Shown here one piece after another: positions 1 through 30,921 of a stretch of 64,000 nt of DNA. The stretch is from Coraliomargarita sp. (GTDB lineage: Bacteria; Verrucomicrobiota; Verrucomicrobiia; Opitutales; Coraliomargaritaceae). The position numbers and the translations under genes are program-made. The notes beneath the pieces are model-generated. The model saw nothing but the letters and a program-made list of their open reading frames with translations. It did not search any database and had not been told where the DNA came from. The stretch is from assembly GCA_965216325.1 (NCBI GenBank), contig OZ244160.1, positions 576,001-640,000 of the forward strand. The letters run 5' to 3'. Positions within the stretch are counted from its first letter, which is position 1, and each line of letters opens with the position of its first letter.

Positions 1-42
1 ACGTTCCATCGTGTATTGGCTATCTGAGCTTGATCGGCGAAC

Positions 43-67
43 GGCAGCCTCGGCGAGGCTGCCCTAC
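43..67 (-). repeat. REP family A (GTAG-type), right arm of a REPIN truncated by the window start
   Basis: Reverse complement is GTAGGGCAGCCTCGCCGAGGCTGCC (GTAG plus hairpin). Identical to 653-677, and the preceding spacer resembles 610-652. Confidence 0.85.
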
Positions 68-111
68 CTGTTGATCGCATTTGCAGTTTGTGATCGCTGC
101 GTTAGGTTTGC

Positions 112-567: not shown

Positions 568-677
568 GGTCGTCTCGCCGAGGCGACCGTTCGCAGTGGT
601 GGCTGAATTTGCCATCCATTGTGGATTGGTTCTCTGAGCCTGATCGGCGAACGGCAGCCTCGGCGAGGCTGCCCTAC
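564..677. repeat. REPIN family A (inverted REP pair 564-588 and 653-677)
   Basis: GTAGGGTCGTCTCGCCGAGGCGACC ... GGCAGCCTCGGCGAGGCTGCCCTAC. Confidence 0.9.
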
Positions 678-777
678 CTCTACACGACCTTTTGCTTGAT
701 CTCGCACAAGGTCTTTGTCTTTATCCGCGCCTTCCCCGCCAACAGTTCCCCTGTTGGCGTTTGTTTTTATAACTAGC

Positions 778-2382
778 ATGGCACAAGCAACTTACTTTCA
801 ACAATGGTTCTCGAATCCGCGTAAAGACATTATCGCGGGCACGGTGGTCGCGCTCGCGCTGATCCCGGAAGCCATTGCCTTCTCGATTATCGCAGGCGTC
901 GACCCGAAGGTCGGTCTCTTTGCCTCCTTCTGTATTGCAGTGACGATTGCGTTCCTTGGTGGCCGTCCGGGCATGATCTCGGCTGCGACGGGTGCGATGG
1001 CGGTGTTGCTGGTGACATTGGTCAAGCAATACGGCATCGAATACCTGCTGCCGGTCACGATTTTGACGGGTATTCTGCAGATAGGTGCGGGCTTCTTTAA
1101 ACTCGGGGGGCTGATGCGCTTTGTGTCGCGCTCGGTGGTCACCGGCTTTGTGAACGCGCTGGCGATCATTATCTTCATGGCCCAGTTACCGGAGTTTCAT
1201 GGGCAAGGGCTCATGATGTATGGCATGGTCGCTGCCGGCTTGGGTATTATCTACGGTCTGCCGCGCATTACGACGGCAGTGCCATCGCCGTTGGTTTGTA
1301 TCGTGGTGTGCACCATCGTTTCCATGGTCTTTGATCTGGCGGCTCCACTTCCGGAGCAGGACGAAGCCAATTCTGAAGTCCTTGAAGAACTCCTCATTTC
1401 GCCCGGTGCGGTGACCGCTGAGCTTGAACTCGCTGAAGTCGCGGAAGAGCCAGCCAAATTGGATGGCCTGCGCACCGTCGGGCACATGGGTAATTTGCCG
1501 ACGGGTCTGCCGCAACTCGAAGCGCTCAAGGTGCCGCTGAACTTGGCGACGCTGGCCATCATTTTCCCATTTGCGATCTCACTGGCCATTGTCGGCCTGC
1601 TTGAGTCGCTCATGACGGCGACCATTGTCGATGACTTTACCGATACCAGCAGTAACAAGAATCGTGAGTGTGTGGGACAGGGTGTCTCCAATATTGTCTC
1701 CGGTATCTTTGGTGGTATGGCGGGTTGCGCGATGATCGGGCAATCGGTGATCAACGTGAAATCGGGTGGTCGGGGTCGACTCTCCACCTTCGCCGCAGGT
1801 ATTATTTTGCTCATCCTGATCTTGGTCTTGGACAACTTTGTGCGCCAGATTCCGATGGCGGCGCTGGTTGCGGTGATGATCATGGTTTCGATCGGAACCT
1901 TTAGCTGGCAGTCGCTTCTGGACCTTAAGGTGCACCACAAGACTTCCAGTGTGGTGATGATCACCACGGTCTTGGTGACAGTCTTCTCCCACAACCTCGC
2001 GCTCGGCGTGGGTGCGGGCGTATTGCTCAGTGCCTTGTTCTTCGCATACAAGGTATCCCGTCTGCTGGAGATCGATTCGGCGCTCGAAGTTTCCAAGAAG
2101 GAGCGTGTTTACACGGTGCGTGGTCAACTGTTCTTCGTCTCGGCGAGCAGCTTTGCTGATTCCTTCGATTTTAGCGAGGTTCTGGATAAGGTGCGCATTG
2201 ATGTGTCCAACGCACACTTCTGGGACTTGTCAGCGATTAACGCCTTAGACCGTGTTGTCTTGAAATTCCGTCGTGAAGGCACTGAAGTAGAACTCTTCGG
2301 TATGAATGAAGCCAGCAAGACACTCGTCCTTCAGGTCGCTAAGCATGACAAGCCGGGCGCGATGGACGAAGTCGGTCACTAA
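778..2382 (+). CDS. SulP-family inorganic anion transporter with C-terminal STAS domain
   Basis: [40 protein letters not shown] motifs and STAS-like C-terminus. ATG 778 preferred over 715. Confidence 0.92.
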
Positions 2383-2405
2383 TCTTACCCCAAACAACAG
2401 ACATT

Positions 2406-3266
2406 ATGGCTAAGCCAAACATTCTCGCTTGCACCGACGGTTCGATCTACGCGCCGAGCATTTACGATCACGCTGCGTGGGCATCCAAGCAAATGGATGC
2501 GTCCGTGCACGTCTTGCACATGCTGAATCCTCATCATGAGGATCCGGTTAAAACCGACCTCAGCGGTTCGATGGGCTTCAATGCACGCAAGAACCTGATG
2601 GAAGACATCGTCGAACTCGAAGCAGCCAAAGCAAAGGTCGCGATCAAGCGCGGCGAGGCCATCCTCGAAGATGCAGAAGCGCAACTCCGCGACGCTGGGG
2701 TCAGTGAAATCCTTGCTGATCAAAAGCACGGCAAGCTCAGCGACTCTATCGAGAACTACGAGCGTGATGCAGACCTCGTGGTGATCGGAAAGCGCGGCAA
2801 CAATGCAAACTTTGAAAAGGGCCATCTGGGCAGTAATCTCGAGCGTGTGATTCGTAGTTGCCAGCACCCGGTGCTCGTGGCTGCACGTGAGTTCCAAAAA
2901 ATGGAGCGCTTCGTACTCGCGTTCGATGGCGGCGCGAGTGCCTTGAAGGCAGTCGACTACGTGGCAAGCGAGCCACTGCTCAAGGGCATGCACTGCTACC
3001 TACTGTATGTGGGCGAGGGCACTCCGAAGATCGAAGCAGCTCTCGCGGAAGCTGCGAAGAAGCTCGAAGCGGCTGGCTTTGAAGTGACGATTGAGCAGCG
3101 CGCGGGGGAGCCTGAGAAGGTGATCGAAGGCGTCGTGGCCCAGGATCATATCGATTTGTTGGTAATGGGCGCCTATGGGCACTCCAAGATTCGCCAACTG
3201 ATTGTCGGCAGCACCACGACTGCGATGATTCGCTCCGTGAAAATTCCAGTGCTGTTGTTCCGCTAG
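2406..3266 (+). CDS. Universal stress protein (tandem USP domains)
   Basis: ILACTDGS, DLVVIGKRG, LGSNLERV and LLVMGAYGHS..GSTT motifs. Directly follows sulP. Confidence 0.9.
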   Translation: MAKPNILACTDGSIYAPSIYDHAAWASKQMDASVHVLHMLNPHHEDPVKTDLSGSMGFNARKNLMEDIVELEAAKAKVAIKRGEAILEDAEAQLRDAGVSEILADQKHGKLSDSIENYERDADLVVIGKRGNNANFEKGHLGSNLERVIRSCQHPVLVAAREFQKMERFVLAFDGGASALKAVDYVASEPLLKGMHCYLLYVGEGTPKIEAALAEAAKKLEAAGFEVTIEQRAGEPEKVIEGVVAQDHIDLLVMGAYGHSKIRQLIVGSTTTAMIRSVKIPVLLFR

Positions 3267-3343
3267 TTCTTGACGGAGTGCGGACACTCTTGTCCGCATC
3301 AATGGATGACAGCTTGTTAGGCAGCTGTGATGCTCAGGTGTGA

Positions 3344-3584
3344 GGAATGGCACAACCTTAAGGTGAGCTTGAGTTGCTTGCGGCTTCTTTAAGGTAGGGT
3401 CGCTTCGCCGAGGCGACCGTTCGGCAGACTATTCGGAATTCCCTGGCAATGTGGATTGCTACGCTGGACCAATGCGCCATCCTAAAAATATTGAGGAGCG
3501 CGTTATCTTAGCGAACGGCAGTCTCGGCGAGACTGCCCTACCAAGCTATACCTCGCTTAAATGCTCTTAAGGTAGTGCCATTCC
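3344..3584. mobile_element. MITE-like segment bounded by 19-bp inverted repeats, containing a REPIN
   Basis: GGAATGGCACAACCTTAAG (3344-3362) and CTTAAGGTAGTGCCATTCC (3566-3584), one mismatch. Confidence 0.55.
3394..3541. repeat. REPIN family A (arms 3394-3418 and 3517-3541)
   Basis: GTAGGGTCGCTTCGCCGAGGCGACC ... GGCAGTCTCGGCGAGACTGCCCTAC. Confidence 0.88.
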
Positions 3585-3715
3585 AGGAGTGAGCACCCTT
3601 CTGCTATGTTGTTTTTACAATTTCGATAATAGTAACATCAAGGGCGTCCCTTACTTGACTTAGGGCGCGTAGGCTTCTTTTCTCAAGGGCTCTACTTCTA
3701 CTTGTCATACGCCCT

Positions 3716-6700
3716 ATGAAGAAATTACTTGCCGCGAACCGCAGCGAAATCGCTGTCCGTATCTTCCGTAGTGCAACCGAGATGGGTTGCCGCACCGTAG
3801 CCATCTATGCGAATGAAGACCGCTTTGGTGTTCATCGTTTTAAAGCTGACGAAGCCTATAAGGTTGGCTCAGGAAAAGGCCCGGTTGCTGATTATCTAGA
3901 TATCGATAGCATCATCGATCTTGCTAAGGATAAGCAGGTCGACCTCATTCACCCCGGCTACGGTTTCCTCTCCGAAAATGCCGGCTTTGCCAACGCTTGT
4001 GAGGCCAATGGTATCAACTTTGTTGGTCCTAGTTCGGATCTGCTGGCGCGCATGGGCGACAAGATCGAAGCACGCAAGATTGCGGATCAAGCCAAGGTGC
4101 CCACCTTGCCCGGCACTGAGGACCCGATTGCAGACCCAAACAAGGCGCTCAAGACTGCCAAGAAGATTGGCTTCCCGTTGATCATTAAGGCCGCCTTCGG
4201 TGGTGGTGGTCGTGGTATGCGCGTGGTCAAGGATCCAAAAGATCTGAAAGCTTCACTCGAAGAAGCGCAGGGCGAAGCGCAACGTGCCTTTGGTAACTCC
4301 TCGGTCTTTCTTGAGCGTTACATCGAACGTGCCAAGCATATCGAAGTTCAGATCCTGGGTGATAAGCAGGGCAATGTGGTGCACTTGCACGAGCGTGACT
4401 GCTCGGTGCAACGTCGCCACCAGAAGGTAGTCGAGATTGCGCCGTCGATTGGCCTGCCGGATGATGTGCGCACCGCGCTGTGTGACGCAGCCGTGCAGAT
4501 CGCAAAGTCTATCGGTTATTACAGTGCCGGCACGGTTGAATTCCTCTACGACCTAGATACTGACGAGTGGTTCTTCATTGAGATGAACCCACGCATTCAA
4601 GTGGAGCATACCGTTACCGAAGTGATTACGGGTATCGATATTGTGCGTAGCCAAATCCTGATTGCGGAAGGTCACAGCCTGCATTCCAAGGAAGTTGGCA
4701 TTCCGCAACAAGCCGACATCCCGCGCAACGGCGTGGCGATTCAGGCACGTGTGACCACGGAAGACCCAGAGAAGAATTTTGCACCCGACTACGGTAAGAT
4801 CGTAAACTACCGCTCCGCGGCCGGTTTCGGTATTCGTCTTGACGGTGCCATGGGTGATACGGGGGCTGTGATTACACCGTTCTATGATTCGCTGTTGGTG
4901 AAGCTTACGGCATCGGCGAGCACCTTCGAGCTCGCGATCCAGCGTATGGAGCGCGCACTCAGCGAAATGCGTATCCGCGGTGTGAAGACCAATATTCCAT
5001 TCATTGAGAATGTGGTGGGGCATCCGATCTTTGTTTCCGGCAAAGCAACGACCACGCTGATTGATACCTCCAAGGAGTTGTTCAACTTCAAGCGCCGCCG
5101 CGACCGTGCGACCAAGATCTTGAATCTGCTCGGTGAAACGATCGTCAATGGCAACGAGCAGGTGAAAGGCCGCCCAGTGCCCACCATGGATTTGCCGGTG
5201 ATTGTTCCGGAACATGATCACACTTCGAAGCTGCCACTCGGCACCAAGGATTATCTGACGAAGCACGGCCCGGAGAAATTTGCCCAGTGGACTCGTAAGC
5301 AGAAGAAGCTGCTGGTCACGGATACGACGATGCGTGACGCGCACCAGTCCTTGCTTGCGGCTCGTATGCGCAGCTATGACCAGCTCAAAGTTGCCGATGC
5401 GATCGCGCAGCGTGCGGGCGATCTCTACTCGCTCGAATGCTGGGGGGGGGCGACCTTCGATACCTCGATGCGCTTCCTGCATGAGAATCCGTTCAAGCGG
5501 CTGCGCCGTCTGCGTGAGCGCATCCCGAACATCTGTTTCCAAATGCTGCTGCGCGGCGCCAACGGTGTTGGCTACTCCAACTATCCGGACAACGTTATCC
5601 GTGGCTTTATTAAGCACTCGGCCGAATCCGGAATGGATATCTTCCGTGTCTTCGACTCGCTCAACTATCTGCCGAACCTGAAGGTTGCGATGGAGTCGAT
5701 CCGCAAGGATACCAACTCCGTCTGTGAGGCGACCATCTGCTATACCGGTGACATCCTCGATGACCGTCGTGACAAGTATTCCCTCGAATACTATGTCAAC
5801 ATGGCCAAGGAACTGGAGAAGATGGGCGCACACGTGCTGGCGCTCAAAGACATGTCCGGCCTGTGCACACCGCATGCGGTCTTCAAGCTAGTCAAGGCGC
5901 TGCGTAGCGAGATCGGTATTCCGGTGCATTTCCATACCCACGATTCGTCCGGCATCGCTGGGGCGTCGATCATCAAGGCCGCTGAAGCGGGCGTCGATGT
6001 CGTTGACCTGGCAACTGCATCGCTGTCCGGCCTGACCTCGCAGCCGAACCTCAACTCCATCGTCAACGCACTGCGTGGCGACAAGCGCGATACCGGCCTC
6101 GATTTGGAATTTCTCAACGAGCTTTCCATTTACTGGGAAGCGGTTCGCCAGTTCTACGGTCCCTTCGACACCAGCCCGAAGTTTGGTTCGGCCGAAGTGT
6201 ACACCCACGAAATGCCGGGTGGCCAATACACCAACCTCCGCGAGCAAGCCCGTGCGCTGGGCCTCGGTGCCCGTTGGCCGGAAGTGGTGCGCTATTACCA
6301 CGATGTGAACGAACTGCTGGGTGATATCGTTAAGGTGACACCATCCTCCAAGGTGGTCGGTGATCTTTCAATGTTCCTGCTGACCAAGGGTGTGGAGCCC
6401 GCAGATCTGGTGAATCTCGAACCCGGAACAGCCTTCCCTGAGTCGGTGGTCGACATGCTTTCCGGAGGCCTCGGCCAACCAAAGGGTGGCTGGCCGAAGC
6501 AGGTGCAAAAGGTCGTGCTGGGCGACCGCAAGCCATTCAAGGGCCGCCCGGGCTCACGTGCTGAGAAGGTTGACATCAAGGCAACCCGTGCCGAGTTGAG
6601 CACTAAGTTCAAGCGCGAGATTAACGATGACGATCTCTATGCCTACCTCATGTATCCACAGGTCTTCACGGACTTGATCAAATATGTGAAGGAATACGGT

Positions 6701-7153
6701 CACGCACGCGTGCTGCCGACACCGGCATTCTTCTACGGCCTTCAGCCAGGCGAAGAAATCACCGTCGAGATCGAAGAGGGCAAGACCCTGATCATTAAAC
6801 TCATCTACGTCTCTGAGCCAAACGAAGACGGTGAGCGCACCTTGACCTTTGAGCTGAATGGTCGCGCCCGTGAGTGCGTGATTTTGGATAAGTCGATTAA
6901 GACCGAAACCAAGAAGCGTACCAAGGCCGATCCTGCGGACAAGATGCAAGTGGGCGCGCCAATTCCGGCGATGGTGAGCAGTGTCTCCGTTTCGGTTGGT
7001 CAGAAGGTCAAGAAGAAGGAAAAGCTCCTCGTCCTCGAAGCCATGAAGATGCAGACCACGGTCTATGCACTCGCCGATGGCGTGATTGACAAGATCGAAG
7101 TCCAAGCTGGCGATCAGGTCGACTCCAAGGACTTGTTGGTCAGTCTCCGCTAA
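3716..7153 (+). CDS. pyc: Pyruvate carboxylase
   Basis: Biotin carboxylase (ANRSEIA, HPGYGFLSEN), carboxyltransferase (RDAHQS, WGGATFD, HEMPGGQY) and biotinyl (EAMKM) domains, 1145 aa. Confidence 0.97.
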   Translation: MKKLLAANRSEIAVRIFRSATEMGCRTVAIYANEDRFGVHRFKADEAYKVGSGKGPVADYLDIDSIIDLAKDKQVDLIHPGYGFLSENAGFANACEANGINFVGPSSDLLARMGDKIEARKIADQAKVPTLPGTEDPIADPNKALKTAKKIGFPLIIKAAFGGGGRGMRVVKDPKDLKASLEEAQGEAQRAFGNSSVFLERYIERAKHIEVQILGDKQGNVVHLHERDCSVQRRHQKVVEIAPSIGLPDDVRTALCDAAVQIAKSIGYYSAGTVEFLYDLDTDEWFFIEMNPRIQVEHTVTEVITGIDIVRSQILIAEGHSLHSKEVGIPQQADIPRNGVAIQARVTTEDPEKNFAPDYGKIVNYRSAAGFGIRLDGAMGDTGAVITPFYDSLLVKLTASASTFELAIQRMERALSEMRIRGVKTNIPFIENVVGHPIFVSGKATTTLIDTSKELFNFKRRRDRATKILNLLGETIVNGNEQVKGRPVPTMDLPVIVPEHDHTSKLPLGTKDYLTKHGPEKFAQWTRKQKKLLVTDTTMRDAHQSLLAARMRSYDQLKVADAIAQRAGDLYSLECWGGATFDTSMRFLHENPFKRLRRLRERIPNICFQMLLRGANGVGYSNYPDNVIRGFIKHSAESGMDIFRVFDSLNYLPNLKVAMESIRKDTNSVCEATICYTGDILDDRRDKYSLEYYVNMAKELEKMGAHVLALKDMSGLCTPHAVFKLVKALRSEIGIPVHFHTHDSSGIAGASIIKAAEAGVDVVDLATASLSGLTSQPNLNSIVNALRGDKRDTGLDLEFLNELSIYWEAVRQFYGPFDTSPKFGSAEVYTHEMPGGQYTNLREQARALGLGARWPEVVRYYHDVNELLGDIVKVTPSSKVVGDLSMFLLTKGVEPADLVNLEPGTAFPESVVDMLSGGLGQPKGGWPKQVQKVVLGDRKPFKGRPGSRAEKVDIKATRAELSTKFKREINDDDLYAYLMYPQVFTDLIKYVKEYGHARVLPTPAFFYGLQPGEEITVEIEEGKTLIIKLIYVSEPNEDGERTLTFELNGRARECVILDKSIKTETKKRTKADPADKMQVGAPIPAMVSSVSVSVGQKVKKKEKLLVLEAMKMQTTVYALADGVIDKIEVQAGDQVDSKDLLVSLR

Positions 7154-7175
7154 ACTGCGTGACCACTCTTAAAGC

Positions 7176-7202
7176 AAAGCCCGCCAACTCGGCGGGCTTT
7201 TT
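7176..7202 (+). terminator. Intrinsic terminator after pyc
   Basis: AAAGCCCGCC-AACTC-GGCGGGCTTTTT. Confidence 0.85.
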
Positions 7203-7249
7203 GTTTAGGTTGGGTTCCCTCCTTTAGGCGGATTCAGGAACAGGCTTTC

Positions 7250-7313
7250 GTCGCACAGGCATCTCGCCTGTGTTTTGAGGTCTACTAGGACACAGGCAAG
7301 ATGCCTGTGTTAC
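7250..7313. repeat. REPIN family B (degenerate GTCG/GTAA feet)
   Basis: CACAGGCATCTCGCCTGTG ... CACAGGCAAGATGCCTGTG. Siblings at 37507, 40342 and 62290. Confidence 0.8.
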
Positions 7314-7359
7314 GACTTTCCAGCTTGCACCGACGACGATTGAAACCAGCTTCGGTGAG

Positions 7360-8211
7360 ATGTCTCGTCTGTTTATTCTCTGTTCTCTTGTGATGGCCCT
7401 TGTTTGCGCGCAGAGCATTGCGGATCCGGTTGAGGGGCGCGTGTTGAGCCTTGATCCTAAAACACGCCTGCTGGAGCTGGAGCTGACCAAGTCGAAAAAT
7501 CAGGATCTCAACGTGGGCGAAACAGTTGTCTTCAAAGTGGGCCTCGGTGATGCAGCGATCGGTTATGTCGGCCGGATGATTCAAGGCAATGCGGCGAACT
7601 ACGCCAAACGCTGGAATCTGGAACAGGTCTTTCCTATCGATGGCGAGGGGGCTAAGGCGGTCAATGATGCGAACAAAAAACTGCGTGCGGAGACCGCTGC
7701 TATGTCGCGGCGTAAGTTTGTGCGTCAGGGCGACTTGATTCCAAATTTTGGCATGCTCGACCAGAATGGCGACTTTGTGCAAATCCGCCAGTATCGCGGT
7801 AAAGCCTTCGTGCTGAACTTTATCTTTACCCGCTGCCAAGTGCCAACCATGTGCCCAGCATCGACGACTCGCATGTCCGAGCTACAGGATACTGCCCGCG
7901 AAGCAGGGCTTGAGAACTTGGACTTTGTGACCATTACCTTTGACCCGCTGTTCGATTCGCCTGGGGTGCTGCGCCAGTATGCCAAAGGCTACGGTTTGGA
8001 GGGTGACAACTTTCACCTCTTAACCAATACGGATGAGAAAGTCATTGAGGATCTCCTGCGTCAGTTCGGGATCATGACGATCGAGGAAGACGGCACGATC
8101 AACCACACCATGGCCACGCTTTTGGTCGATGCCACGGGCCGTGTCGCCTATCGCAAAGAAGGCTCCAGCTGGACGGTTAAAGAATTCATGAAGGCAGCGA
8201 AAAAGCTGTGA
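7360..8211 (+). CDS. SCO1/SenC-family copper chaperone with N-terminal signal and extra domain
   Basis: FIFTRCQVPTMCP (CxxxxxC variant), ITFDP.FDSP and conserved His in INHT. Confidence 0.85.
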   Translation: MSRLFILCSLVMALVCAQSIADPVEGRVLSLDPKTRLLELELTKSKNQDLNVGETVVFKVGLGDAAIGYVGRMIQGNAANYAKRWNLEQVFPIDGEGAKAVNDANKKLRAETAAMSRRKFVRQGDLIPNFGMLDQNGDFVQIRQYRGKAFVLNFIFTRCQVPTMCPASTTRMSELQDTAREAGLENLDFVTITFDPLFDSPGVLRQYAKGYGLEGDNFHLLTNTDEKVIEDLLRQFGIMTIEEDGTINHTMATLLVDATGRVAYRKEGSSWTVKEFMKAAKKL

Positions 8212-8214
8212 GTT

Positions 8215-8244
8215 GAACCGTTAATTTACGTTAATTAACGGTTC
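8215..8244. repeat. AT-rich perfect inverted repeat (AACCGTTAA family, minimal form)
   Basis: GAACCGTTAATT-TACGTT-AATTAACGGTTC. Confidence 0.8.
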
Positions 8245-8257
8245 CCAAAATATCACC

Positions 8258-9154
8258 ATGACTCGTTCCAAGAAACTACCCCTGCTCAGTATCGCGATCA
8301 TCACGGTCGTATTCGTGGCTGCGTATTTTGCTTTGAGGGCGTTGCCGGATGCGCAGTGCGGCTTCCTGACCTATGAGGAAATTGTCCATGAGGACGGCAC
8401 CATCGAGTTTTGCGCGACCAACCATGCCGGCTTTTTGGATCTTTCACGCTTGGAGTATCCGATCTCGATGGATCTTGAAGTTACCGAAGATGCCAGTGCA
8501 GGAGAATCCGTTCCCGTCGCCCTTGTTCTTGAAACGAACAAGGGCCACACCATCGCGCCACATGAACTGGCGGTTACCCACGAGCGGAAGATGCATGTGA
8601 TGCTGATCGATCCAGCCATGGAGGACTACCATCACGTGCATCCGCAACCGGATGGTATTGGCGGGCGTTACACCTTTACCTTTGAGCCACAAGCAGATGG
8701 GCCGTATCGTATGTTTACCGAGATCGTGCCGATTCGCACACGTCGGCAGGTGATTGCTACGGGGGAGATTCCAGTGGGCACAGTCGGAAGTCCGCCAGAG
8801 TTTTCGCGCAGTCTGGAATCTGAAGTGGATGGCTTGCGCTTTCGCTTAACCGAGGTGCCTGAAACGCTGAAGATCAAGCGTGACTATCGTATTGAACTCG
8901 ATGTGAGTGCAGAAGATGGATCGCCGGCGCCGCTGGAAATGATCATGGGTGCTAAAGGGCATATGGTTGCCTTCGATGCCGCGGGTCTCGGCTTTGCGCA
9001 CATGCACCCGATCGACAGCTTGAAAGGGGCAGTGGATAGTGACCGCTTGGCCTTCTTGTTCAATGTGCCGAACCCGGGGTGGTATCGTCTCTTTGCACAA
9101 GTGCAGGTCGGGGGTCGCAGTATCTATGGCCGCTTCGATTTATTGATCGAATAG
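8258..9154 (+). CDS. Membrane-anchored putative metal-binding protein (two His-rich beta domains)
   Basis: N-terminal TM segment, HERKMH..YHHVHP and MGAKGH..FAHMHP motifs. Lies next to SCO. Confidence 0.7.
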   Translation: MTRSKKLPLLSIAIITVVFVAAYFALRALPDAQCGFLTYEEIVHEDGTIEFCATNHAGFLDLSRLEYPISMDLEVTEDASAGESVPVALVLETNKGHTIAPHELAVTHERKMHVMLIDPAMEDYHHVHPQPDGIGGRYTFTFEPQADGPYRMFTEIVPIRTRRQVIATGEIPVGTVGSPPEFSRSLESEVDGLRFRLTEVPETLKIKRDYRIELDVSAEDGSPAPLEMIMGAKGHMVAFDAAGLGFAHMHPIDSLKGAVDSDRLAFLFNVPNPGWYRLFAQVQVGGRSIYGRFDLLIE

Positions 9155-9200
9155 TGTTTCCACAGTTTGCAGATGACGCTGGATGTGCTCCTTATTCGGC

Positions 9201-9659
9201 ATGAAAACATCCAAGACACTACGCTTCTCTCTTCTGGTAACTTTATTGGTCGCGCTGGTTGCGCCGCAGATTGCTTCCGCGCACTGCCAAGTGCCCTGCG
9301 GTATCTATGGCGATCACGAACGTGTGCATGCCTTGCTTGAAGATGCTGAGACCGTCTCCAAAGCCTGCAAGATGATGGCAGAGCTTGCGGGTAAGGCCGA
9401 TGCCCAGTCGCAGCAGCAGTTTGTTCGTTGGGTGAATAACAAAGAATCACACGCTCAAAAGATTATCGAAATGATGAGCGATTATTACTTCACCCAGCGC
9501 ATCAAGCCGAGTCAGGGAGACTACACGGAGCGTCTGGTGGCCCATCACGCAGTGGTGCTTGCCGCGATGAAATCGAAGCAAAGCGCAGACATAAAGCATG
9601 CCGAAGCACTCTCTGAAGCGATTAGTGGCTTGATGCTCTATTATCCACACCAGCATTAA
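9201..9659 (+). CDS. sodN: Nickel superoxide dismutase with Sec-type signal peptide
   Basis: Nickel-hook HCQVPCGIY directly after an ASA cleavage motif. RWVNNKESHA helix. Confidence 0.9.
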   Translation: MKTSKTLRFSLLVTLLVALVAPQIASAHCQVPCGIYGDHERVHALLEDAETVSKACKMMAELAGKADAQSQQQFVRWVNNKESHAQKIIEMMSDYYFTQRIKPSQGDYTERLVAHHAVVLAAMKSKQSADIKHAEALSEAISGLMLYYPHQH

Positions 9660-9787
9660 GTGTGAAGCGCGGTAGCAGGAGCGTCCTCTGCTCCGCACCG
9701 ATTGACAAAGTGCGGTGGATTTGCTGCTATTCTGGCGAATTGCGCCGCGAGGACGCGGCTGCGCTACCTGTACAATCCAGAGTTCCC

Positions 9788-10324
9788 ATGAAGAGTTACG
9801 AAGCGTTTAAAGCCTCGCGCGAGAAGATGGATCCCAGCTCGCGTAAGATGAATGAGCATCAGTGGCAGCAAGCATATGCGGCCTATAAAAGCACTCGTGA
9901 GCGGGTTCGTTCCAGTCGATCTGAGGGGCGTAAGTCGTCTGGAAGTCGTGACAGTGCGGTTCCGGCTTCGGGTATGCACACACCCAGTAGCGTGACGCCA
10001 ACTGCCATGCTGCGACGCAAGGTGCGCGCGCTCTCTGGCTACGAAGAGGTGCGTTTGTTGATGAACTTACTGGCGTGGATCGGCATCGTCGTTGTGGCGG
10101 GGCACTTAGTCGCACAGTGCATTTTCTACTCATCTGCAGAGAGCTATCTAATGGCGGGAGTCTATGCTGCGATCCGTATTCTAGCGATTCTCTTCTTTAA
10201 AGCGATGGCACAAGTGCTTATCGATATCCCCGATATAGCGCTCTATCGGATGCATCTGGAGACTGCCGCGACTGAGTCGACCGAGTTGGATCCTGAATCA
10301 GTTGGTTCAGCGGACTCAGTGTAA
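9788..10324 (+). CDS. Hypothetical membrane protein (two TM segments)
   Basis: Open frame with a charged N-terminus and two hydrophobic helices. ATG 9788 is the likely start. Confidence 0.65.
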   Translation: MKSYEAFKASREKMDPSSRKMNEHQWQQAYAAYKSTRERVRSSRSEGRKSSGSRDSAVPASGMHTPSSVTPTAMLRRKVRALSGYEEVRLLMNLLAWIGIVVVAGHLVAQCIFYSSAESYLMAGVYAAIRILAILFFKAMAQVLIDIPDIALYRMHLETAATESTELDPESVGSADSV

Positions 10325-10455
10325 CTATTGAATTACACGCAAGCTTTCGGGTTGATGTGGATGTTCTGATTGTGGCATTTGCTGTCTGTTGCTAAGACCG
10401 CAAACTCGGGAAGTTCCTTGCGCTGGATTCGTCTGTGGTGCAGTTTCGCCCTCCA

Positions 10456-12393
10456 ATGAAAAAGATCCTGTTACCTTTGGCACTTAGTCTGGGAATCGTG
10501 ATCGGCTGGTTTGCCGGTGGGAATCGTGAACGGAGTGATTCTGTGGTTTTGGAGCAGCTTCCACAGCAGCCTAGCGTAGCTGTGAGTGACGAAACGGTTG
10601 ATGAGTCGAGTATCCTCCCGCCGGGAGAGCTCGAATTGGGTGTCGGTATTGACGAACTGGAGACATGGACACTGGACCAGAAGTTAGCGCGCATCGATAC
10701 GCTTAAAAAATCGCAGTCGTTGACGAACACGATCGCTTCACTGAATCTGATCGCCTCCATGTCAGAGACCGAGCTTAGGGACATGCTTGGAGAGGCTTCA
10801 AAGCGTGGCTTTGGCAGTATGGATGATTTCTTCATGCCTTATTACACCTTCTTGGCATGGGTAGAAAAGAATCCTGATAGTGCTTATGATTTTTACCTGA
10901 ATGAGGCACAGCCGATGCAAAAGCAGATGTATTCACAGTCGCTTTTCTCGGCATGGGCGACACGGGATGCGGAGGGCGCAATTGCTGCGGCTGATCAAAT
11001 CGAGTCGGAGCACGAGCGTGCTCAAGCGATGGGAGCGATTGCGATGTCGTTGGCAGGATCGGACCCGGAGGCTGCCGTTGATTTGCTGCAGTCGAGGGAT
11101 GATACGAAACCATGGAATTATCAGACCGTTTTTATGATGTGGGCGGGGTCCAATCCGGATAAAGCGTTTGCGAAGTTGGAGTCGCTGCCTGAGGGGCAGG
11201 AGCGGGAAAATGCGTTTCAGGGCTATATTCGTGGAATTGCGAGCAAGGACGTGACTAAAGCGGCTGACATGGCGATCAATCTAGAAAATGAAAGGGATCG
11301 CGCTCAGGCCCTACAGAGTGTCATGCATCTCTGGCTTAATTCTGATTCCGACGCGGCATTTGATTTCCTAACTCGGCTGGACGAAGGCAAGCTGAAGAAT
11401 GACTTACTGCGTAATTCGATCTGGAATCTCACACGCCAGGACCCCGAACTTGCGCTTCGAGTGGTGAATGAGCAAATGACTGGGCGTGCACGCGATGATG
11501 CTTTGGGGAATGTGATCAATCAGTTGGCCAACGACTCTCCGGAAAAGGCAGTGGCGGTTGTTGCGACCTTGCCCTATGGTCGTGTCTACGAGAACGCGGT
11601 CCGCAACATTGCCAGTAATTGGGGGAGGAAGGATCCAGTGGCTGCATTGAACTGGGTGCACAGTCTTGAAGAGGGGCAGGAGAAGGACAGCGCCCTCAGT
11701 AATGTGTATAGTTCTTTTGCGAACGCGAAGACCGATGAGGCTCAGGCTTATTTAGTCGCGATGCCGGATGGTGATGAAAAGAAGAAGCTGGTGGATGCCT
11801 TGGGGGCTAAGCTTGCGCAGACGGATCCCCAAGCAGCAATCCTTTGGGCGAAGTCGATGGCTACGGAGGAATACGTGAAGTTAGCGCAAGATCGTGTGAT
11901 TAGTGCGTGGGCTCAGGAGAAACCTTTGGAGGCGATTCAGTATTTAGAGGCTACCGGAGATACCGAGCGTTTAAACGATCAGATTTGGTCACTCGCCAAT
12001 GGTTACGCTCGTCAGGACGTGAAAGCTGCGGCGGATTGGGCGGGCACGATTGAGGATGAGGATGCGCGTCGGAAGGCCTATGAGCGCGTTGCCGACGAGT
12101 GGTTGCAGCACAATACCGAGGAAGCATCTATTTGGATCGCGGGTCTCGAAACGAGCCCGGAACGTGATAGCTCCGTACGCAAGCTAGTAGATAAAATCTA
12201 TCGTTCAGATCCCGATGCGGCCTTTCAATGGGCTGCAACGATCGAGAATCAGAATGAACGGCGCAATGCCACACGCCGAGCGATCGACTTTCTCAGCCAT
12301 AGTGATCGTAAGGAGGAAGCACAGGCACTGATCGATGGTAGTGAGCTAAGTGAAGCCGATAAAGAGCACCTCCAGAAGCGACTGGGTAAATAG
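10456..12393 (+). CDS. Secreted/anchored alpha-helical repeat protein (WAxxDPxAA repeats)
   Basis: Signal/TM N-terminus and many W-x-x-x-D/N-P-x-A-A helical repeats. Confidence 0.8.
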   Translation: MKKILLPLALSLGIVIGWFAGGNRERSDSVVLEQLPQQPSVAVSDETVDESSILPPGELELGVGIDELETWTLDQKLARIDTLKKSQSLTNTIASLNLIASMSETELRDMLGEASKRGFGSMDDFFMPYYTFLAWVEKNPDSAYDFYLNEAQPMQKQMYSQSLFSAWATRDAEGAIAAADQIESEHERAQAMGAIAMSLAGSDPEAAVDLLQSRDDTKPWNYQTVFMMWAGSNPDKAFAKLESLPEGQERENAFQGYIRGIASKDVTKAADMAINLENERDRAQALQSVMHLWLNSDSDAAFDFLTRLDEGKLKNDLLRNSIWNLTRQDPELALRVVNEQMTGRARDDALGNVINQLANDSPEKAVAVVATLPYGRVYENAVRNIASNWGRKDPVAALNWVHSLEEGQEKDSALSNVYSSFANAKTDEAQAYLVAMPDGDEKKKLVDALGAKLAQTDPQAAILWAKSMATEEYVKLAQDRVISAWAQEKPLEAIQYLEATGDTERLNDQIWSLANGYARQDVKAAADWAGTIEDEDARRKAYERVADEWLQHNTEEASIWIAGLETSPERDSSVRKLVDKIYRSDPDAAFQWAATIENQNERRNATRRAIDFLSHSDRKEEAQALIDGSELSEADKEHLQKRLGK

Positions 12394-12528
12394 AGAGGTT
12401 GAGCTGTGCTCTGTTCAGATGTGTCACGTACCTATGTTTAATAGAACTGTTTGAGTGAAATGAGCTTGTCGGCTGAGGGAAGGGCATACGGCCAACTTGA
12501 GCGTGCTACAGTTCTAAAGCTGCCACTC

Positions 12529-12726
12529 AGGCTATTCAACCGTGACCGACTTGGCTAAGTTGCGTGGCTTGTCGACATCACAGCCGCGAGCGAGCGCGAT
12601 GTGGTAGCTGAGCAGCTGCACCGGAATGCTCATGAGAATTGGACGGGCGATGTCGTGGCTTTCCGGAACGACGATCAGATCGTCGATCAGATCTTCCGGC
12701 ATCTCGCAGTCAGCGCTCGCGATACA
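12529..12726 (-). pseudogene. glmS: Second copy of the glmS 3' end (last ~64 codons plus stop)
   Basis: Direct repeat of 14034-14231 (offset 1505 bp) with 4 mismatches, all synonymous. Confidence 0.95.
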
Positions 12727-12729
12727 TGG

Positions 12730-12814
12730 AACGCTTAAAAGGAACGCTTAAAAGGGACAGGCTAAAAGTAGCAGGTTGAGTTGCGTCTTATTCAGTAGTG
12801 GTTATGCTGTTTTT
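12730..12814 (+). mobile_element. Left end/origin of HUH element copy 1 with a 13-nt tandem truncated unit
   Basis: AACGCTTAAAAGG (12730-12742) followed by AACGCTTAAAAGGGACAGGCT... (from 12743). Same leader as copy 2. Confidence 0.8.
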
Positions 12815-13837
12815 ATGCGACAGCGACGACTCAAGGTCGGTGGACGGGAAGCGATCTATCACTGCATGACTCGCACCGTGAATGGTGAGCTTCTCTTTAA
12901 GGATAGAGAGAAAGAGATGCTCCGGAAGATGATGCACATAGTTGCAGACTTTTGTGGGGTGCAGGTGCTCACATTCTGCATTATGTCAAATCATTTTCAC
13001 GTGCTCGTGAAAGTGCCAGCCTCACCGAGAGTATCTGATCAAGAGCTGATGCGGCGTTATCGGGTGCTGTATCCGAAACCGACGAAATATCAGGCTGAAT
13101 CTGCGAAACAGATGGAGCTGACGCTATCTGATGGCGGCGAGGATGCGGAAGTGATTCGTGCGAAGTTGTTGGCCCGAATGGCGGATGTCTCGGAGTTTAT
13201 GAAGGCGCTGAAACAGCGCTTCTCGGTCTGGTATAATCGTAGTCACCGTCGTTATGGAACTCTCTGGGCGGAGCGCTTCAAGTCGGTCTTGGTGGAAGGC
13301 GAGGGCAATGCCTTGCAAACCATGGCGGCCTATATCGATCTGAACCCTGTCCGGGCGGGATTAGTCGAGGATCCAAAGGATTACCGTTTCTGTGGCTATG
13401 CAGAAGCCGTTGCGGGAGTCTCTGAAGCCCGCATTGGTTTGAAGTGTATTTGGGCTGATCATGCTGGAGCGGACTCGAGTGAAGTGACGCACAAGTGCGC
13501 ACGCTACGGGTCTGTCATGAAGGCGCACCGCCAGTTGCTTTTCGGGAAAGGGGCGAGTCCGTGGACACATCACGGTAAAGTCATCAATCGCAAACAAGCG
13601 CTTAAGGTGCTGGAAGAGCAGGACGGCCAGCTGTCTAAAGCTGCAGTCTTGCGTTGCCGGGTTCGCTATTTCACGGACGGGGCCATTCTTGGCTCATCGG
13701 AATTTGTTCGAGGCTTTGCTGGCGCTTGGCAGTTGGACCGCGGGCGGAAGCATCCTCCTAAGACGAATCGCCTCCGTGGAGCCGATTGGGGCGATTTGTC
13801 TGTGATTCAAGGCCTACGACGGCAGGTGTTTGGCTAG
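12815..13837 (+). CDS. Large Y1 HUH transposase-like protein (IS200/RAYT superfamily), copy 1
   Basis: YHCMTR, CIMSNHFH (HUH), GTLWAERFKS and YIDLNPVRAG motifs. ATG 12815 preferred over TTG 12776. Confidence 0.9.
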   Translation: MRQRRLKVGGREAIYHCMTRTVNGELLFKDREKEMLRKMMHIVADFCGVQVLTFCIMSNHFHVLVKVPASPRVSDQELMRRYRVLYPKPTKYQAESAKQMELTLSDGGEDAEVIRAKLLARMADVSEFMKALKQRFSVWYNRSHRRYGTLWAERFKSVLVEGEGNALQTMAAYIDLNPVRAGLVEDPKDYRFCGYAEAVAGVSEARIGLKCIWADHAGADSSEVTHKCARYGSVMKAHRQLLFGKGASPWTHHGKVINRKQALKVLEEQDGQLSKAAVLRCRVRYFTDGAILGSSEFVRGFAGAWQLDRGRKHPPKTNRLRGADWGDLSVIQGLRRQVFG

Positions 13838-14036
13838 CTTCGCGGACCAATGGTTCCCTTGTTTTTGCAGATGAGTAACTGGGCGGGCAGTCTGGAGACA
13901 TGCGGGTCTTGAGAGATATCCCAAGCATTCTGGGGAACTAGACCTGCCGACGTGTGGTTGAGCTAGGTGGGAAAACGCCCACTGTTTCAAGGTGGACGTT
14001 GATAACACTTAAGCTCTTGTTTGGCTTCCGCTGAGG

Positions 14037-15884
14037 CTATTCCACCGTGACCGATTTGGCTAAGTTGCGCGGCTTGTCGACATCACAGCCGCGAGCGAGC
14101 GCGATGTGGTAGCTGAGCAGCTGCACTGGAATGCTCATGAGAATTGGACGGGCGATGTCGTGGCTTTCCGGAACGACGATCAGATCGTCGATCAGATCTT
14201 CCGGCATCTCGCAGTCAGCGCTCGCGATACAAATGACCTTACCTTTACGCGCTTTGACCTCCTGAATGTTTGCTAGACTCTTCTGGAAGATTTCACCGGA
14301 TGCAGCGAGGAAGACACTTGGGCAGTCTTCGCTGATCAATGCGATCGGGCCGTGTTTCATCTCCGCTGCAGGGTAACCTTCTGCGTGAATGTAAGAGATT
14401 TCTTTCAGCTTGAGCGCACCTTCCAAGGCAATCGGGAACATAAACTGACGGCCGAGGAAGAGGCAGTCTTCGTAGTGTGCGTAACGCTTTGCGATTTCCT
14501 CGATCTTGCCGTTCTGCTTGAGCACCTCGCGGACCTGATCCGGGAGGGCCTTGAGCGCTTTGACTATATCGGCACCGTCGCTGTAGCTCAAGTCTCGGAG
14601 GCGGCCGAAGTATAGTGCGACCATCGCACCGAGCAGCACTTGGGAAGTAAATGCTTTGGTTGAGGCCACACCAATTTCCGGGCCTGCGTGCTGGTAGATA
14701 CCACCGTCACATTCGCGAGCGATGGTGGAGCCGACACTGTTGTTAATTGAAAGCGTGCGATAGCCTTTACGCTTGGCTTCACGCAGCGCAGCCAGTGTGT
14801 CGATGGTTTCACCGGATTGGCTGATCGCAAAGACCAGGGTGTTCTTGTCCAGAGGTGCGTTGCGATAACGGAACTCGGAGGCGTATTCGACTTCAACAGG
14901 AATGCGCGCATAGCGCTCGATCAGATACTCCGCCATCAAGCAGGCGTGCCATGCGGTGCCACAAGCGAGGAAGAGAATGCGGTCCACATTGCGCAGGTCC
15001 TGTGGGCTCAGATTTAGTCCACCAAAGAAGGCGGTGCTGCCGTCGTCCGAGAAGCGGCCACGCATACCGTTTTCGAGCGCGGTTGGCTGCTCGAAAATTT
15101 CCTTCTCCATGAAGTGACTGTAGTTGCCGAGTTCTGCTTCGCTAGTGTCCCAGTCGACTTGTTGGATGACTGGCTCAACGTCCTTACTGGATGCAGTGGT
15201 AATCGAAAAGTCGTCGTCACGGAGGTGCACGACTTCGTTGTCGTTCAAATAGATGACGTTCTGCGTGCAATGGGTGATCGCGTTTACGTCGGAGGCAATG
15301 AGGTTCTCGCCCTTGCCGATGCCGACGATCAGAGGAGAGCCTTTGCGTGCGCCGATGAGTTCGTTCGGGTAGTCGCTGCAGAGCACTGCGATGCCGTAGG
15401 TGCCTTCTACATGGCTCAGGCTTTTGCGCACGGCTTCCAAAAAGCGGTTTTTGCCCTTGGACTCAGGTTCCTTGTCGTAGTGGTAGGCGATCATATTGGA
15501 GAGCGCCTCGGAGTCGGTTTCGGAGCTGAAGGTGTAGCCTTTCTCTGTGAGAAAGTTCTTCATGCCGAGGTAGTTTTCGATCACCCCGTTGTGCACTAGC
15601 GCAATTTTTCCATCGCTGCTGACGTGTGGGTGGGCGTTGGCTTCAGTGACATCACCGTGAGTGGCCCAACGTGTGTGGCTGATTCCGAGCGTGCCGCCTA
15701 AATCTTCACCTAAAGCGCGCTCCAATTCCTTGACGCGGCCCGTTCTACGTATAGTGCTAAAGCCGTTACTGCTACTAATGGTCATTCCCGACGAATCATA
15801 CCCTCGGTATTCGAGGCGCTTTAATCCATCCAGCATCACGCTACCCGCACGGGAGCGACCAATATATCCTACGATTCCACACAT
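14037..15884 (-). CDS. glmS: Glutamine-fructose-6-phosphate transaminase
   Basis: Starts MCGIVG, ends [23 protein letters not shown] and SQSGET motifs. Confidence 0.98.
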   Translation of the reverse strand: MCGIVGYIGRSRAGSVMLDGLKRLEYRGYDSSGMTISSSNGFSTIRRTGRVKELERALGEDLGGTLGISHTRWATHGDVTEANAHPHVSSDGKIALVHNGVIENYLGMKNFLTEKGYTFSSETDSEALSNMIAYHYDKEPESKGKNRFLEAVRKSLSHVEGTYGIAVLCSDYPNELIGARKGSPLIVGIGKGENLIASDVNAITHCTQNVIYLNDNEVVHLRDDDFSITTASSKDVEPVIQQVDWDTSEAELGNYSHFMEKEIFEQPTALENGMRGRFSDDGSTAFFGGLNLSPQDLRNVDRILFLACGTAWHACLMAEYLIERYARIPVEVEYASEFRYRNAPLDKNTLVFAISQSGETIDTLAALREAKRKGYRTLSINNSVGSTIARECDGGIYQHAGPEIGVASTKAFTSQVLLGAMVALYFGRLRDLSYSDGADIVKALKALPDQVREVLKQNGKIEEIAKRYAHYEDCLFLGRQFMFPIALEGALKLKEISYIHAEGYPAAEMKHGPIALISEDCPSVFLAASGEIFQKSLANIQEVKARKGKVICIASADCEMPEDLIDDLIVVPESHDIARPILMSIPVQLLSYHIALARGCDVDKPRNLAKSVTVE

Positions 15885-15959
15885 AAGGGGGCATATCTGT
15901 ATGCTGCCCCATGCTGGAGGCAAGACCCTAATTTCTCTGTATACTCCACTAACATTACT

Positions 15960-29354: not shown

Positions 29355-29456
29355 GCTTCGGTCGCCAGGGGGCAGTCGCTCAACTAGCCGATGTCTCGTG
29401 ACGACTGGTTAGGCCTTCTTGTAGTTCTTTAAGTCTTTTCATGACTTCCAAAGGTA

Positions 29457-29738
29457 TGATATGTCCTGAGAAAAATGGACATGGGATTCTCTTAAGTAGA
29501 GGATCACACCATGCAAAGACGACGATACACTGCCGAGTTTAAAAACGAGGCCGTAAAGATGCTATTAATCGAGGGGCTCTCCGTGAAGGAGGTCTCTGAA
29601 CAACTCGGGGTTCCTAAGGGGATGCTGTATGCCTGGAAGGCGAAGCACCTCGACGATCTGGAGGCACAGACTCCAGAAGGAGCTCAAAGCCCGAAGGCCT
29701 TGGCCGCAGAGAACGATCAGCTACGTAGGGCTTCCTGA
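29457..29738 (+). mobile_element. Truncated IS3-family element: left end plus partial orfA (29511-29738), no orfB
   Basis: TGATATGTCC..AAAAATGGACA IRL-like end. RRRYTAEFKNEAV..VSEQLGV..LYAW HTH. Cut in the leucine-zipper region. Confidence 0.85.
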
Positions 29739-29785: not shown

Positions 29786-29940
29786 AACGTTTTAAAGGGA
29801 CAAACGTTTAAAAGGGACAGGCTAAAAGTAGCAGGTTGAGTTGCGTCTTATTCAGTAGTGGTTATGCTAACGTTTAAAAGGGACAGGCTAAAAGTAGCAG
29901 GTTGAGTTGCGTCTTATTCAGTAGTGGTTATGCTGTTTTT
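29786..29940 (+). mobile_element. Left end/origin of HUH element copy 2 with three tandem units
   Basis: Units start AACG at 29786 (17 nt), 29803 (66 nt) and 29869 (full leader). Confidence 0.88.
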
Positions 29941-30921
29941 ATGCGACAGCGACGACTCAAGGTCGGTGGACGGGAAGCGATCTATCACTGCATGACTCGC
30001 ACCGTGAATGGTGAGCTTCTCTTTAAGGATAGAGAGAAAGAGATGCTCCGGAAGATGATGCACATAGTTGCAGACTTTTGTGGGGTGCAGGTGCTCACAT
30101 TCTGCATTATGTCAAATCATTTTCACGTGCTCGTGAAAGTGCCAGCCTCACCGAGAGTATCTGATCAAGAACTGATGCGGCGTTATCGGGTGCTGTATCC
30201 GAAACCGACGAAATATCAGGCTGAATCTGCGAAACAGATGGAGCTGACGCTATCTGATGGCGGCGAGGATGCGGAAGTGATTCGTGCGAAGTTGTTGGCC
30301 CGAATGGCGGATGTCTCGGAGTTTATGAAGGCGCTGAAACAGCGCTTCTCGGTCTGGTATAATCGTAGTCACCGTCGTTATGGAACTCTCTGGGCGGAGC
30401 GCTTCAAGTCGGTCTTGGTGGAAGGCGAGGGCAATGCCTTGCAAACCATGGCGGCCTATATCGATCTGAACCCTGTCCGGGCGGGATTAGTCGAGGATCC
30501 AAAGGATTACCGTTTCTGTGGCTATGCAGAAGCCGTTGCGGGTGTTGTGGAGGCTAGGGAGGGCTTGAGGCGTATTTGGGCCGATCATGGGCGGAATTAT
30601 CTCCAAGCACATCGCACGCTACTTTTCGGCAAGAGTGCGAGCCCATGGACACATCACGGCAAAGTGATCAACCGCAAGAAAGCTCTCCAAGTGCTCGAGG
30701 AGGATGGGGGACAGCTGTCTATAGCTGTGGTGCTGCGCTGCCGTGTACGCTATTTCACTGACGGTGCCATTCTGGGTTCGTCAGAGTTTGTGCGTGGCTT
30801 TACCGGTGCCTGGCAGCTTGAGCGCAGCCGAAAATATCCTCCGAAGGCGAATGCACTGCGTGGAGCGGATTGGGGAGATCTTTCAGTGATTCAAGGGCTG
30901 CGACGACAGGTTTTTAGCTAA
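29941..30921 (+). CDS. Large Y1 HUH transposase-like protein, copy 2
   Basis: Same motifs as 12815-13837. N-terminal ~200 aa identical, C-terminus diverged. Confidence 0.9.
   Translation: MRQRRLKVGGREAIYHCMTRTVNGELLFKDREKEMLRKMMHIVADFCGVQVLTFCIMSNHFHVLVKVPASPRVSDQELMRRYRVLYPKPTKYQAESAKQMELTLSDGGEDAEVIRAKLLARMADVSEFMKALKQRFSVWYNRSHRRYGTLWAERFKSVLVEGEGNALQTMAAYIDLNPVRAGLVEDPKDYRFCGYAEAVAGVVEAREGLRRIWADHGRNYLQAHRTLLFGKSASPWTHHGKVINRKKALQVLEEDGGQLSIAVVLRCRVRYFTDGAILGSSEFVRGFTGAWQLERSRKYPPKANALRGADWGDLSVIQGLRRQVFS

Follow-up and report, generated by a model that had tools for sequence, protein, structure and literature searches.

The analyzed window is the whole 64,000-nucleotide stretch, which corresponds to positions 576001–640000 of a 3.06-Mb Coraliomargarita sp. 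genome assembled as one contig. At two loci in this window, a gene for an HUH/Y1 protein has head-to-tail partial copies of its own 5' end just upstream, two of them at locus 2 (17 and 66 nt, from position 29786) and one at locus 1 (13 nt, from position 12730). The full copy of the element at locus 2 (29869–30921, + strand) consists of an AT-rich start region (11 nt), a core with the sequence AGGGACAGGCTA (29879–29890), a promoter-like leader, and a Y1 open reading frame (ORF) of 326 amino acids (29941–30921). The proximal partial unit (29803–29868, + strand) is 66 nt long, is 100% identical to positions 29869–29934, and ends 6 nt short of the position equivalent to the ATG. The distal unit (29786–29802, + strand) comprises 17 nt, namely the start region and the first 6 nt of the core, and has one mismatch to the master copy (TTTTAAA versus TTTAAAA). 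The left flank of this locus is a patchwork that includes a fragment of an IS3-family orfA (29456–29722, + strand), which is 97% identical to genome positions 388510–388776.

At locus 1, the full copy (12743–13837, + strand) has its core at 12753–12764 and a Y1 ORF of 340 amino acids at 12815–13837. It is preceded by a single partial unit of 13 nt (12730–12742, + strand), the border of which is uncertain by 2–3 nt (12728–12730) as a consequence of the 13-nt period. The two loci are 97.6% identical in the 5' half of the element and 78% identical in the 3' half, and the distance from the fixed start to the ATG is 72 nt at both (29869 to 29941 and 12743 to 12815).

The unit coordinates, the unit lengths, and the 72-bp spacing agree with the initial annotation of this DNA, which had also proposed that the units begin at the element's own 5' end, finish at variable points, and arise in cis. 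Every locus-1 unit reads AACGC and every locus-2 unit AACGT, as had been described; the resemblance of each array to its neighboring copy, confirmed by sequence comparison, argues for an origin in cis, and comparison across loci bears out the fixed start and the variable ends. The tandem units are also present in assembled sequence of run X1, the contigs of which (as opposed to raw reads) span the 29868|29869 junction with single-copy depth and extend over the junctions at 29786 and 29803. These contigs, and the presence of the same kind of array in many independent assemblies, show that the arrays are not an assembly artefact.

Features of the encoded protein

The ORFs of 326 and 340 amino acids match the Pfam model Y1_Tnp (PF01797) in two pieces, with 52.2 bits against a cut-off of 23. 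This was the only domain found, with no helicase domain. The scores against the NCBIfam RAYT model (68.5) and the NCBIfam transpos_IS200 model (21.6) were under the respective cut-offs of 80 and 55. The proteins have a single conserved tyrosine motif, and residues H60-F61-H62 and Y173 (AAYIDLNP) are invariant in 22 aligned sequences.

A single-sequence search of the PDB returned nothing relevant, whereas profile and fold searches did give matches. The best fold match of the AlphaFold model (pLDDT 82.6) is Escherichia coli TnpA-REP (4ER8, E 8e-6), followed by the ISDra2 and IS608 TnpA proteins (2XM3 and 2VJV). The model also predicts an inserted helical domain (residues 75–120) and a C-terminal domain. 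By its motif, its catalytic tyrosine, and the Y1 fold of the model, the protein is classified as a member of the HUH/Y1 transposase superfamily, and it is a long class-2 HUH/Y1 "tyrosine transposase" with predicted catalytic residues that are intact.

Arrays recur at other copies in this genome and in relatives

A BLAST comparison of both loci with the whole genome identified two further copies of the element, at positions 28127 (copy 3) and 177542 (copy 4). The copy at 28127 is preceded by one 104-nt unit and the copy at 177542 by units of 433 and 130 nt, which reach into the ORF, so that arrays lie beside 4/4 genomic copies. Among genomes of the same family, 17 of 24 have several copies of the Y1 gene (22 of the 41 relatives searched hold the gene). 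There are four copies here, and relatives have as many as 15 matches, counting whole and partial ones.

To compare related loci in other genera, all loci from relatives that include the N terminus of the protein were oriented, giving 35 distinct loci, and were analyzed with one decomposition algorithm. Start-anchored units were present at 12 of these 35 loci, and four further loci with units (L006, L009, L050, and L056), missed by the algorithm as a result of mismatches or a contig end, were recognized by eye. When random positions in the same loci were used as a control, 14 of 5873 were positive (0.24%), and a single unrelated 110-nt satellite accounts for 11 of these 14. Within these loci, duplications of this type have a background rate of 0.05–0.24%.

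An independent set of loci came from a scan of a sequence collection that found at least 597 relatives, the best 80 of which are almost all labelled Verrucomicrobiota; this set comprised 69 loci. A tandem duplication within the 160-nt leader window was found at 12 of these 69 loci, compared with 0.85 expected from a rate of 0.012 per 160 nt elsewhere (Poisson p ∼1e-10). In this set, subfamilies with variant or reversed cores also have stacks with a fixed start and variable ends, of up to seven units. No array was detected at 23/35 loci of the first set and 57/69 of the second. Based on these results, arrays of partial copies with a fixed start are a general feature of the element, far above chance.

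The arrays differ between close relatives. One orthologous locus has units of 433 and 130 nt in one species and a single 1052-nt unit in another, and a metagenome strain has a different array on an element of the locus-2 type. Among congeners, no empty site was found for locus 3, the neighborhood of which varies, and each of the three congeners has locus 4 occupied. Downstream of Y1 copy 4, at a distance of ∼1.2 kb (genome ∼179700–180500; L033 7690–8500), there are tandem 110-nt units, parts of which recur on many contigs of two congeners.

Units start 8–13 nt upstream of a conserved core

The conserved core is the 12-mer AGGGACAGGCTA, which lies 10–11 nt after the start in the copies of this genome. 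Across 15 arrays, the units start 8 to 13 nt before the first G of the core, most often at −11 (7/15 arrays). The start sequences themselves are AT-rich and different between loci and genera; genomic copies 3 and 4, for example, begin with GATC and AGTA (GATCAGTAAT.. at one and AGTAATAATT.. at the other). AACG, which had been put forward as the mark of the nick or origin site, is present only at loci 1 and 2, and other copies and genera conserve the spacing between start and core instead. For an HUH/Y1 gene, the fixed start is naturally read as a nick or origin, and the start position at the other copies is anchored rather than random; AACG itself is not supported as the signal.

The start region differs even between copies that are 95–98% identical, and metagenome contigs from runs X6 and X17 begin to match only at −5 and −4 from the core. 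At one locus (L012), a later unit takes in 3 nt from the end of an earlier unit. The inclusion of locus-specific DNA in the units, together with the L012 case, suggests that the position of the cut would be set by a ruler-like distance from the core.

The other end of the units is variable. Unit lengths range from 9 to 1052 nt in the 15 arrays. Measured from the core start, 16 of the 23 ends are at −1 to +9 and the others at +15 to +1041. A unit in one relative spans the entire element and terminates 1 nt past the stop codon. Distal units tend to diverge more from the master copy than proximal ones (the 17-nt unit here, L006, and L116), which fits the addition of new units next to the gene.

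Near-identical copies share sequence from between −19 and −2 of the core through to between −5 and +24 of the stop codon, and homology between locus 2 and the copy at genome 28127 stops at the stop codon. Judged from these boundaries, the element is a leader plus one gene and little more. Its 5' layout is an AT-rich stretch, the core, ∼10 AT-rich nt, and a TTGAC box 18 nt after the core start. At the 5' end, alifold gave no conserved pairs (mean z 0.02, n = 38). At the 3' end, a hairpin just past the stop codon is commoner than in controls, a difference that is not significant (z < −1.5 in 23% versus 7–8%; Wilcoxon p 0.08; n = 73).

Of 33 full copies, 25 have a forward core 54–84 nt ahead of the ATG and only 2 have an inverted core within 400 nt downstream, which argues for a one-ended element. 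When the 10–11-nt start regions were compared with the DNA after the stop codon at loci 1–4 and L046, no target-site duplication was found, the sole match being one of 6 nt at locus 3, taken as a coincidence. At L143, a reverse and a forward core abut around ATATAA upstream of the Y1 gene to form a perfect palindrome, and other distant subfamilies (L113, L116, L168, and L176) have only a reversed core upstream.

The core co-occurs with the Y1 gene and is also found in gene-less repeats

The core 12-mer is found in 17 of the 41 relatives, and all 17 hold the Y1 gene. It is present in 17/22 gene-bearing genomes versus 0/19 gene-free genomes (Fisher p 3e-7), and a reversed-pattern control gave 0–1 matches per genome. 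A search of this genome for the core returned 19 copies, all on the + strand, in gene leaders, units, and gene-less repeats. Nine of these are in the four gene leaders and their units. Nine others are short repeats without a gene, each made up of a start region, the core, and ∼8 nt, at 440.6 and 463–468.6 kb; these repeats are also stacked with variable ends, occur in at least 5 contexts, and in one array interrupt a sulfatase gene. The last copy, at genome position 3011369, is solitary, without the preceding AT-rich stretch, and may be a chance match.

In another genome (G005) there are 37 core copies, present as 25-nt repeats at >20 loci (L070–L089) in both orientations, and only a partial Y1 gene was found there with the query used. 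Some of the G005 repeats form inverted pairs and some form diverged tandem units. The gene-less core repeats correspond to REP repeats but are non-palindromic.

In the stretch at genome 463000–468700 (L031 7000–12700), gene-less cores lie between genes for PEP-CTERM proteins, iteron-like short repeats are found upstream of several core sites, and a highly structured repeat of ∼180 nt that has no Rfam match follows the core site three times. An Rfam search of the 16-kb region with gene-less sites identified no family. TATAAT follows some gene-less cores and was considered as a promoter element, which was rejected because there is no −35 box at the proper spacing. A different 25-nt repeat, with the palindrome GTGCGCAC, lies in frame inside the locus-1 Y1 ORF (13484–13508), at the point where the identity between loci 1 and 2 falls from 97.6% to 78%. 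This repeat has 9 other genomic places, often near a second conserved motif, and probably represents a separate REP-like family.

The sense strand of the element is the G-rich strand

Strand orientation was analyzed for 20 copies on long contigs from 8 other genomes, using 20-kb windows around each copy. The sense strand is the G-rich strand in 17/20 of these copies, among them 15/15 with at least 62% identity, and in 4/4 copies in this genome (21/24). The three copies in the opposite orientation are of more distant subfamilies, and one of them is at near-zero skew. Neighboring long ORFs are unbiased (70184 versus 70799 amino acids), and the local skew is positive at all six sites in this genome. 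Assignment of the sense strand to the G-rich strand makes the top strand the lagging-strand template, and IS200/IS605 elements have the same strand bias (PMC5027513). The bias could stem from a cause other than replication. Over the whole genome (G000), the cumulative GC skew turns at ∼1.1 Mb and ∼1.78 Mb, which would give very unequal replichores of ∼2.4 and 0.7 Mb.

Duplicated and truncated genes flank the elements

The left flank of locus 1 holds an orphan duplicate of the 3' end of glmS (12519–12726, + strand), which is 208 bp long, is 96.6% identical to positions 14024–14231, and lies 3 nt (TGG) before the 13-nt unit. The intact glmS gene (14037–15923, − strand) is the source of this duplicate, which comprises the final 195 bp of the gene together with the 13 bp that follow its stop codon. 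Between the element and glmS is a 3'-terminal fragment of a gene that we call X (13864–14036, + strand), which is native DNA on the right-hand side of the element. In two congeners, X and glmS adjoin each other in convergent orientation. Here, the order is full-length X, ∼45 kb of other DNA, a gene for a protein of 652 amino acids, 125 nt, the glmS tail copy, and TGG, followed by the 13-nt unit, the element, 26 nt, the last 170 nt of X, and glmS. The ∼47 kb between X and glmS (genome 542935–589863, including window positions 1–13863) is bounded by diverged duplicates of the 3' end of X that are 74% identical.

The glmS tail had been interpreted as the end of a much longer unit of the same kind. 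It does meet the fixed start in the way expected of a unit that ended 1489 nt downstream, but the first 1.28 kb of such a unit is absent. The absence of the upstream part of the 1489-nt unit means that a second event, a deletion or a rearrangement, would be needed, and it is possible that the tail copy is the remnant of such a unit. Its left border lies 5–12 nt before a core-like heptamer (12528–12534), and the chance of such a match within 20 nt is ∼1e-3 before multiple looks are considered. This spacing is the one expected of a second enzyme-made junction, an agreement that is suggestive only.

Two other left flanks consist of the 5' parts of sulfatase genes, the remainders of which are absent, and these truncated flanks hint at adjacent deletions. 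At genome 27056–28039 (L034 5056–6039), a sulfatase gene is interrupted by Y1 copy 3 and is also split into two ORFs further upstream, and the latter split indicates that it is a pseudogene.

A proposed origin of the arrays

We favor the reading that each polar array consists of 3'-truncated copies of the 5' end of a one-ended Y1 element, made by the cutting and joining activity of the enzyme, and we assign this reading a probability of about 0.6. It builds on the observed anatomy of the arrays, their recurrence, the association of the core with the gene, the bias of the sense strand, and a Y1 fold with intact catalytic residues; cleavage itself, the position and strand of the cut, and the joining partner are what we infer from these sequence patterns. 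The protein would recognize the core on the top (sense) strand and would cut this strand ∼10–11 nt upstream of it, at a position determined by distance and not by the sequence of the cut site. The tyrosine would stay linked to the 5' end made by the cut, and this linked end would be joined to a free 3'-OH downstream, on a strand of the same polarity that had already been copied past the start. The source of this 3'-OH could be the nascent leading-strand tip at a passing (co-directional) fork or the 3' end of the nick itself, extended by strand displacement. The product would have the order flank, start to end of the unit, start to end of the full element, and repetition would add units next to the gene. 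The clustering of unit ends in the core suggests that synthesis may stall when it meets the bound protein, with many events going no further than the first 10 nt of the core.

HUH enzymes bind, and stay linked to, only the 5' ends that they cut themselves, and for this reason only a free 3'-OH can be the variable partner; every junction has the form of some 3' end followed by the fixed start. Known Y1 enzymes read a hairpin and a guide tetranucleotide; here there is neither a conserved hairpin nor a conserved cut-site sequence, which departs from the rest of the family and weighs against the favored reading. So do units with ends at −1 to +2, as they would need joining before the core was copied. 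Runs of equal units, such as the two of 18 nt at genome 465026, could be the result of secondary slippage.

The initial annotation had instead proposed that abortive copies return to the origin in cis. In this version, rolling-circle copies that run from the start to a variable end would come free, either as circles or in linear single-stranded form, and the enzyme would then integrate them at the site that it cuts; the same enzyme and site would thus yield the same product, with a fixed start and variable ends. The gene-less copies of start and core, in at least 5 contexts here and at least 20 loci in G005, suggest that short units can move to new places. However, re-insertion adds two steps, release and re-integration, and units of 9–13 nt with little or no core would hardly be recognizable as substrates. 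The final sequence is the same as that produced by direct joining to a nascent 3' end; we consider the longer route unlikely. Replication slippage or unequal recombination would need no enzyme at all: replication would pause at the core or at a bound protein, and misalignment would be favored by the AT-rich stretch. Short AT-rich repeats are prone to slippage, units of equal length do come in runs, and 1–3 nt of microhomology is possible at some junctions (GG at locus 1). Yet slippage needs repeats at both ends, whereas here one end is anchored in a 6-nt window at 15 loci with unrelated starts and the other is spread over 1 kb. With no usable microhomology at the 29868|29869 or locus 4 junctions and a background duplication rate in the same loci of only 0.05–0.24%, slippage is a quite improbable source of the arrays.

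The repeated starts might instead be selected binding-site arrays, iterons or operators that tune expression of the gene or a neighbor, and not scars. In keeping with such a role, the core is fixed 18 nt before the TTGAC box, which resembles a −35 element, and gene-less copies lie upstream of PEP-CTERM genes. This explanation is scarcely credible when set against the many units that lack a complete core, the units of 433–1052 nt that extend into the ORF, and the differences between close relatives, and selection would leave the anchored start unexplained.

Returning to enzyme-made copies, a broader proposal that we offer as tentative is that this is a new kind of replication-coupled, one-ended HUH element, with a non-hairpin site, a cut on the lagging-strand template placed by an ∼11-nt ruler, and ligation to the nearest nascent 3' end. 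On this view, the arrays would preserve a chronological record of aborted events, and the same chemistry would generate duplications and deletions of host DNA (the glmS tail and the truncated sulfatase genes) and the spread of the 25-nt gene-less copies.

The polar arrays recur across a bacterial phylum as a scar pattern that points to where and how this enzyme family acts. Long class-2 Y1 proteins are widespread, and the present analysis provides a candidate recognition site, a predicted cut position and strand, and natural "reaction products" across a phylum, which together bring a question that had been open within reach of a simple oligonucleotide assay. If a cut set by distance from a non-hairpin site and acceptance of any 3' end are true, they would represent a new way for an HUH enzyme to act, and local duplications and deletions would have a new source; such an enzyme might also be useful as a tool for joining single-stranded DNA.

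Comparison with known systems

The protein resembles those of the IS200/IS605 elements IS608 and ISDra2 in its HUH motif, single catalytic tyrosine, and fold. The left end of IS608 is cut 5' of the recognized element on the top strand, and the predicted cut here is likewise 5' of the recognized core on that strand. No target-site duplication was seen, and the active strand would be on the lagging-strand template, as for IS200/IS605 (PMC5027513). Unlike the IS200/IS605 proteins (subclass 1.1), which consist of a core of ∼150 amino acids, the proteins analyzed here have 326–340 amino acids, are twice as long, and contain inserted helical and C-terminal domains, and their tyrosine motif is YIDLNP instead of Y---Q (PMC6006769). 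IS200/IS605 elements also have subterminal hairpins at both ends, whereas here there is no conserved 5' hairpin, a non-significant excess at the 3' end, and no conserved target tetranucleotide. In our literature search, no description of polar left-end arrays was found for IS200/IS605.

Another counterpart is the TnpA-Y1 subclass 2.3 of Quentin et al. (2018, PMC6006769), with a median of 325 amino acids, a 55-amino acid insertion in the core between β3 and αC, and a C-terminal domain specific to it; its members carry the signature Y---NP and are present in several copies per genome. Judged by the published description, the proteins described here are similar in length, inserted helices, C-terminal domain, and copy number. 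Their motifs, NHFH and YIDLNP, are each one residue off the NHYH and YVDLNP of subclass 2.3, and their host phylum, Verrucomicrobiota, has 0 mentions in the text of PMC6006769. According to that text, no REP-like DNA partner was found for subclasses 2.1 (TIRYT) and 2.3, the role of which was left open; relative to subclass 2.3 as described there, a candidate cognate DNA site and scars of activity are identified here.

The long RAYT-like TIRYT genes of TIRtrons are flanked, at a defined distance, by the motif GGGGWSAS (Di Nocera et al. 2013, PMC3733652). GGGACAG in the core fits 7/8 positions of this motif, but TIRtrons have inverted repeats on both sides, and a downstream inverted partner is present here in 2/33 copies. 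As in the RAYT/REP system, the genome contains scattered short repeats that are cognate to a Y1 gene, repeat and gene are found together, and the best structural match is 4ER8. In RAYT/REP, palindromic REP hairpins flank a gene that is usually single-copy; here the repeats are non-palindromic and one-sided, and the gene is multi-copy. In the texts covered by our full-text literature search, neither arrays of this type nor a cognate site for this group of proteins had been described.

One precise origin end and one imprecise end are features shared with one-ended transposition of IS91/ISCR, with Helitrons, and with Replitrons. Head-to-tail junctions and tandem arrays have been taken as marks of rolling-circle replication in Helitrons (PMC5876387), and Replitrons combine a precisely defined left end with right ends that are "fuzzy" (PMC10288648). 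Those systems depend on Y2 proteins or Rep-helicase fusions, and the domain make-up here is unrelated to theirs. Rolling-circle transposons form arrays of whole elements, whereas the arrays described here are graded, 3'-truncated left ends stacked at the origin.
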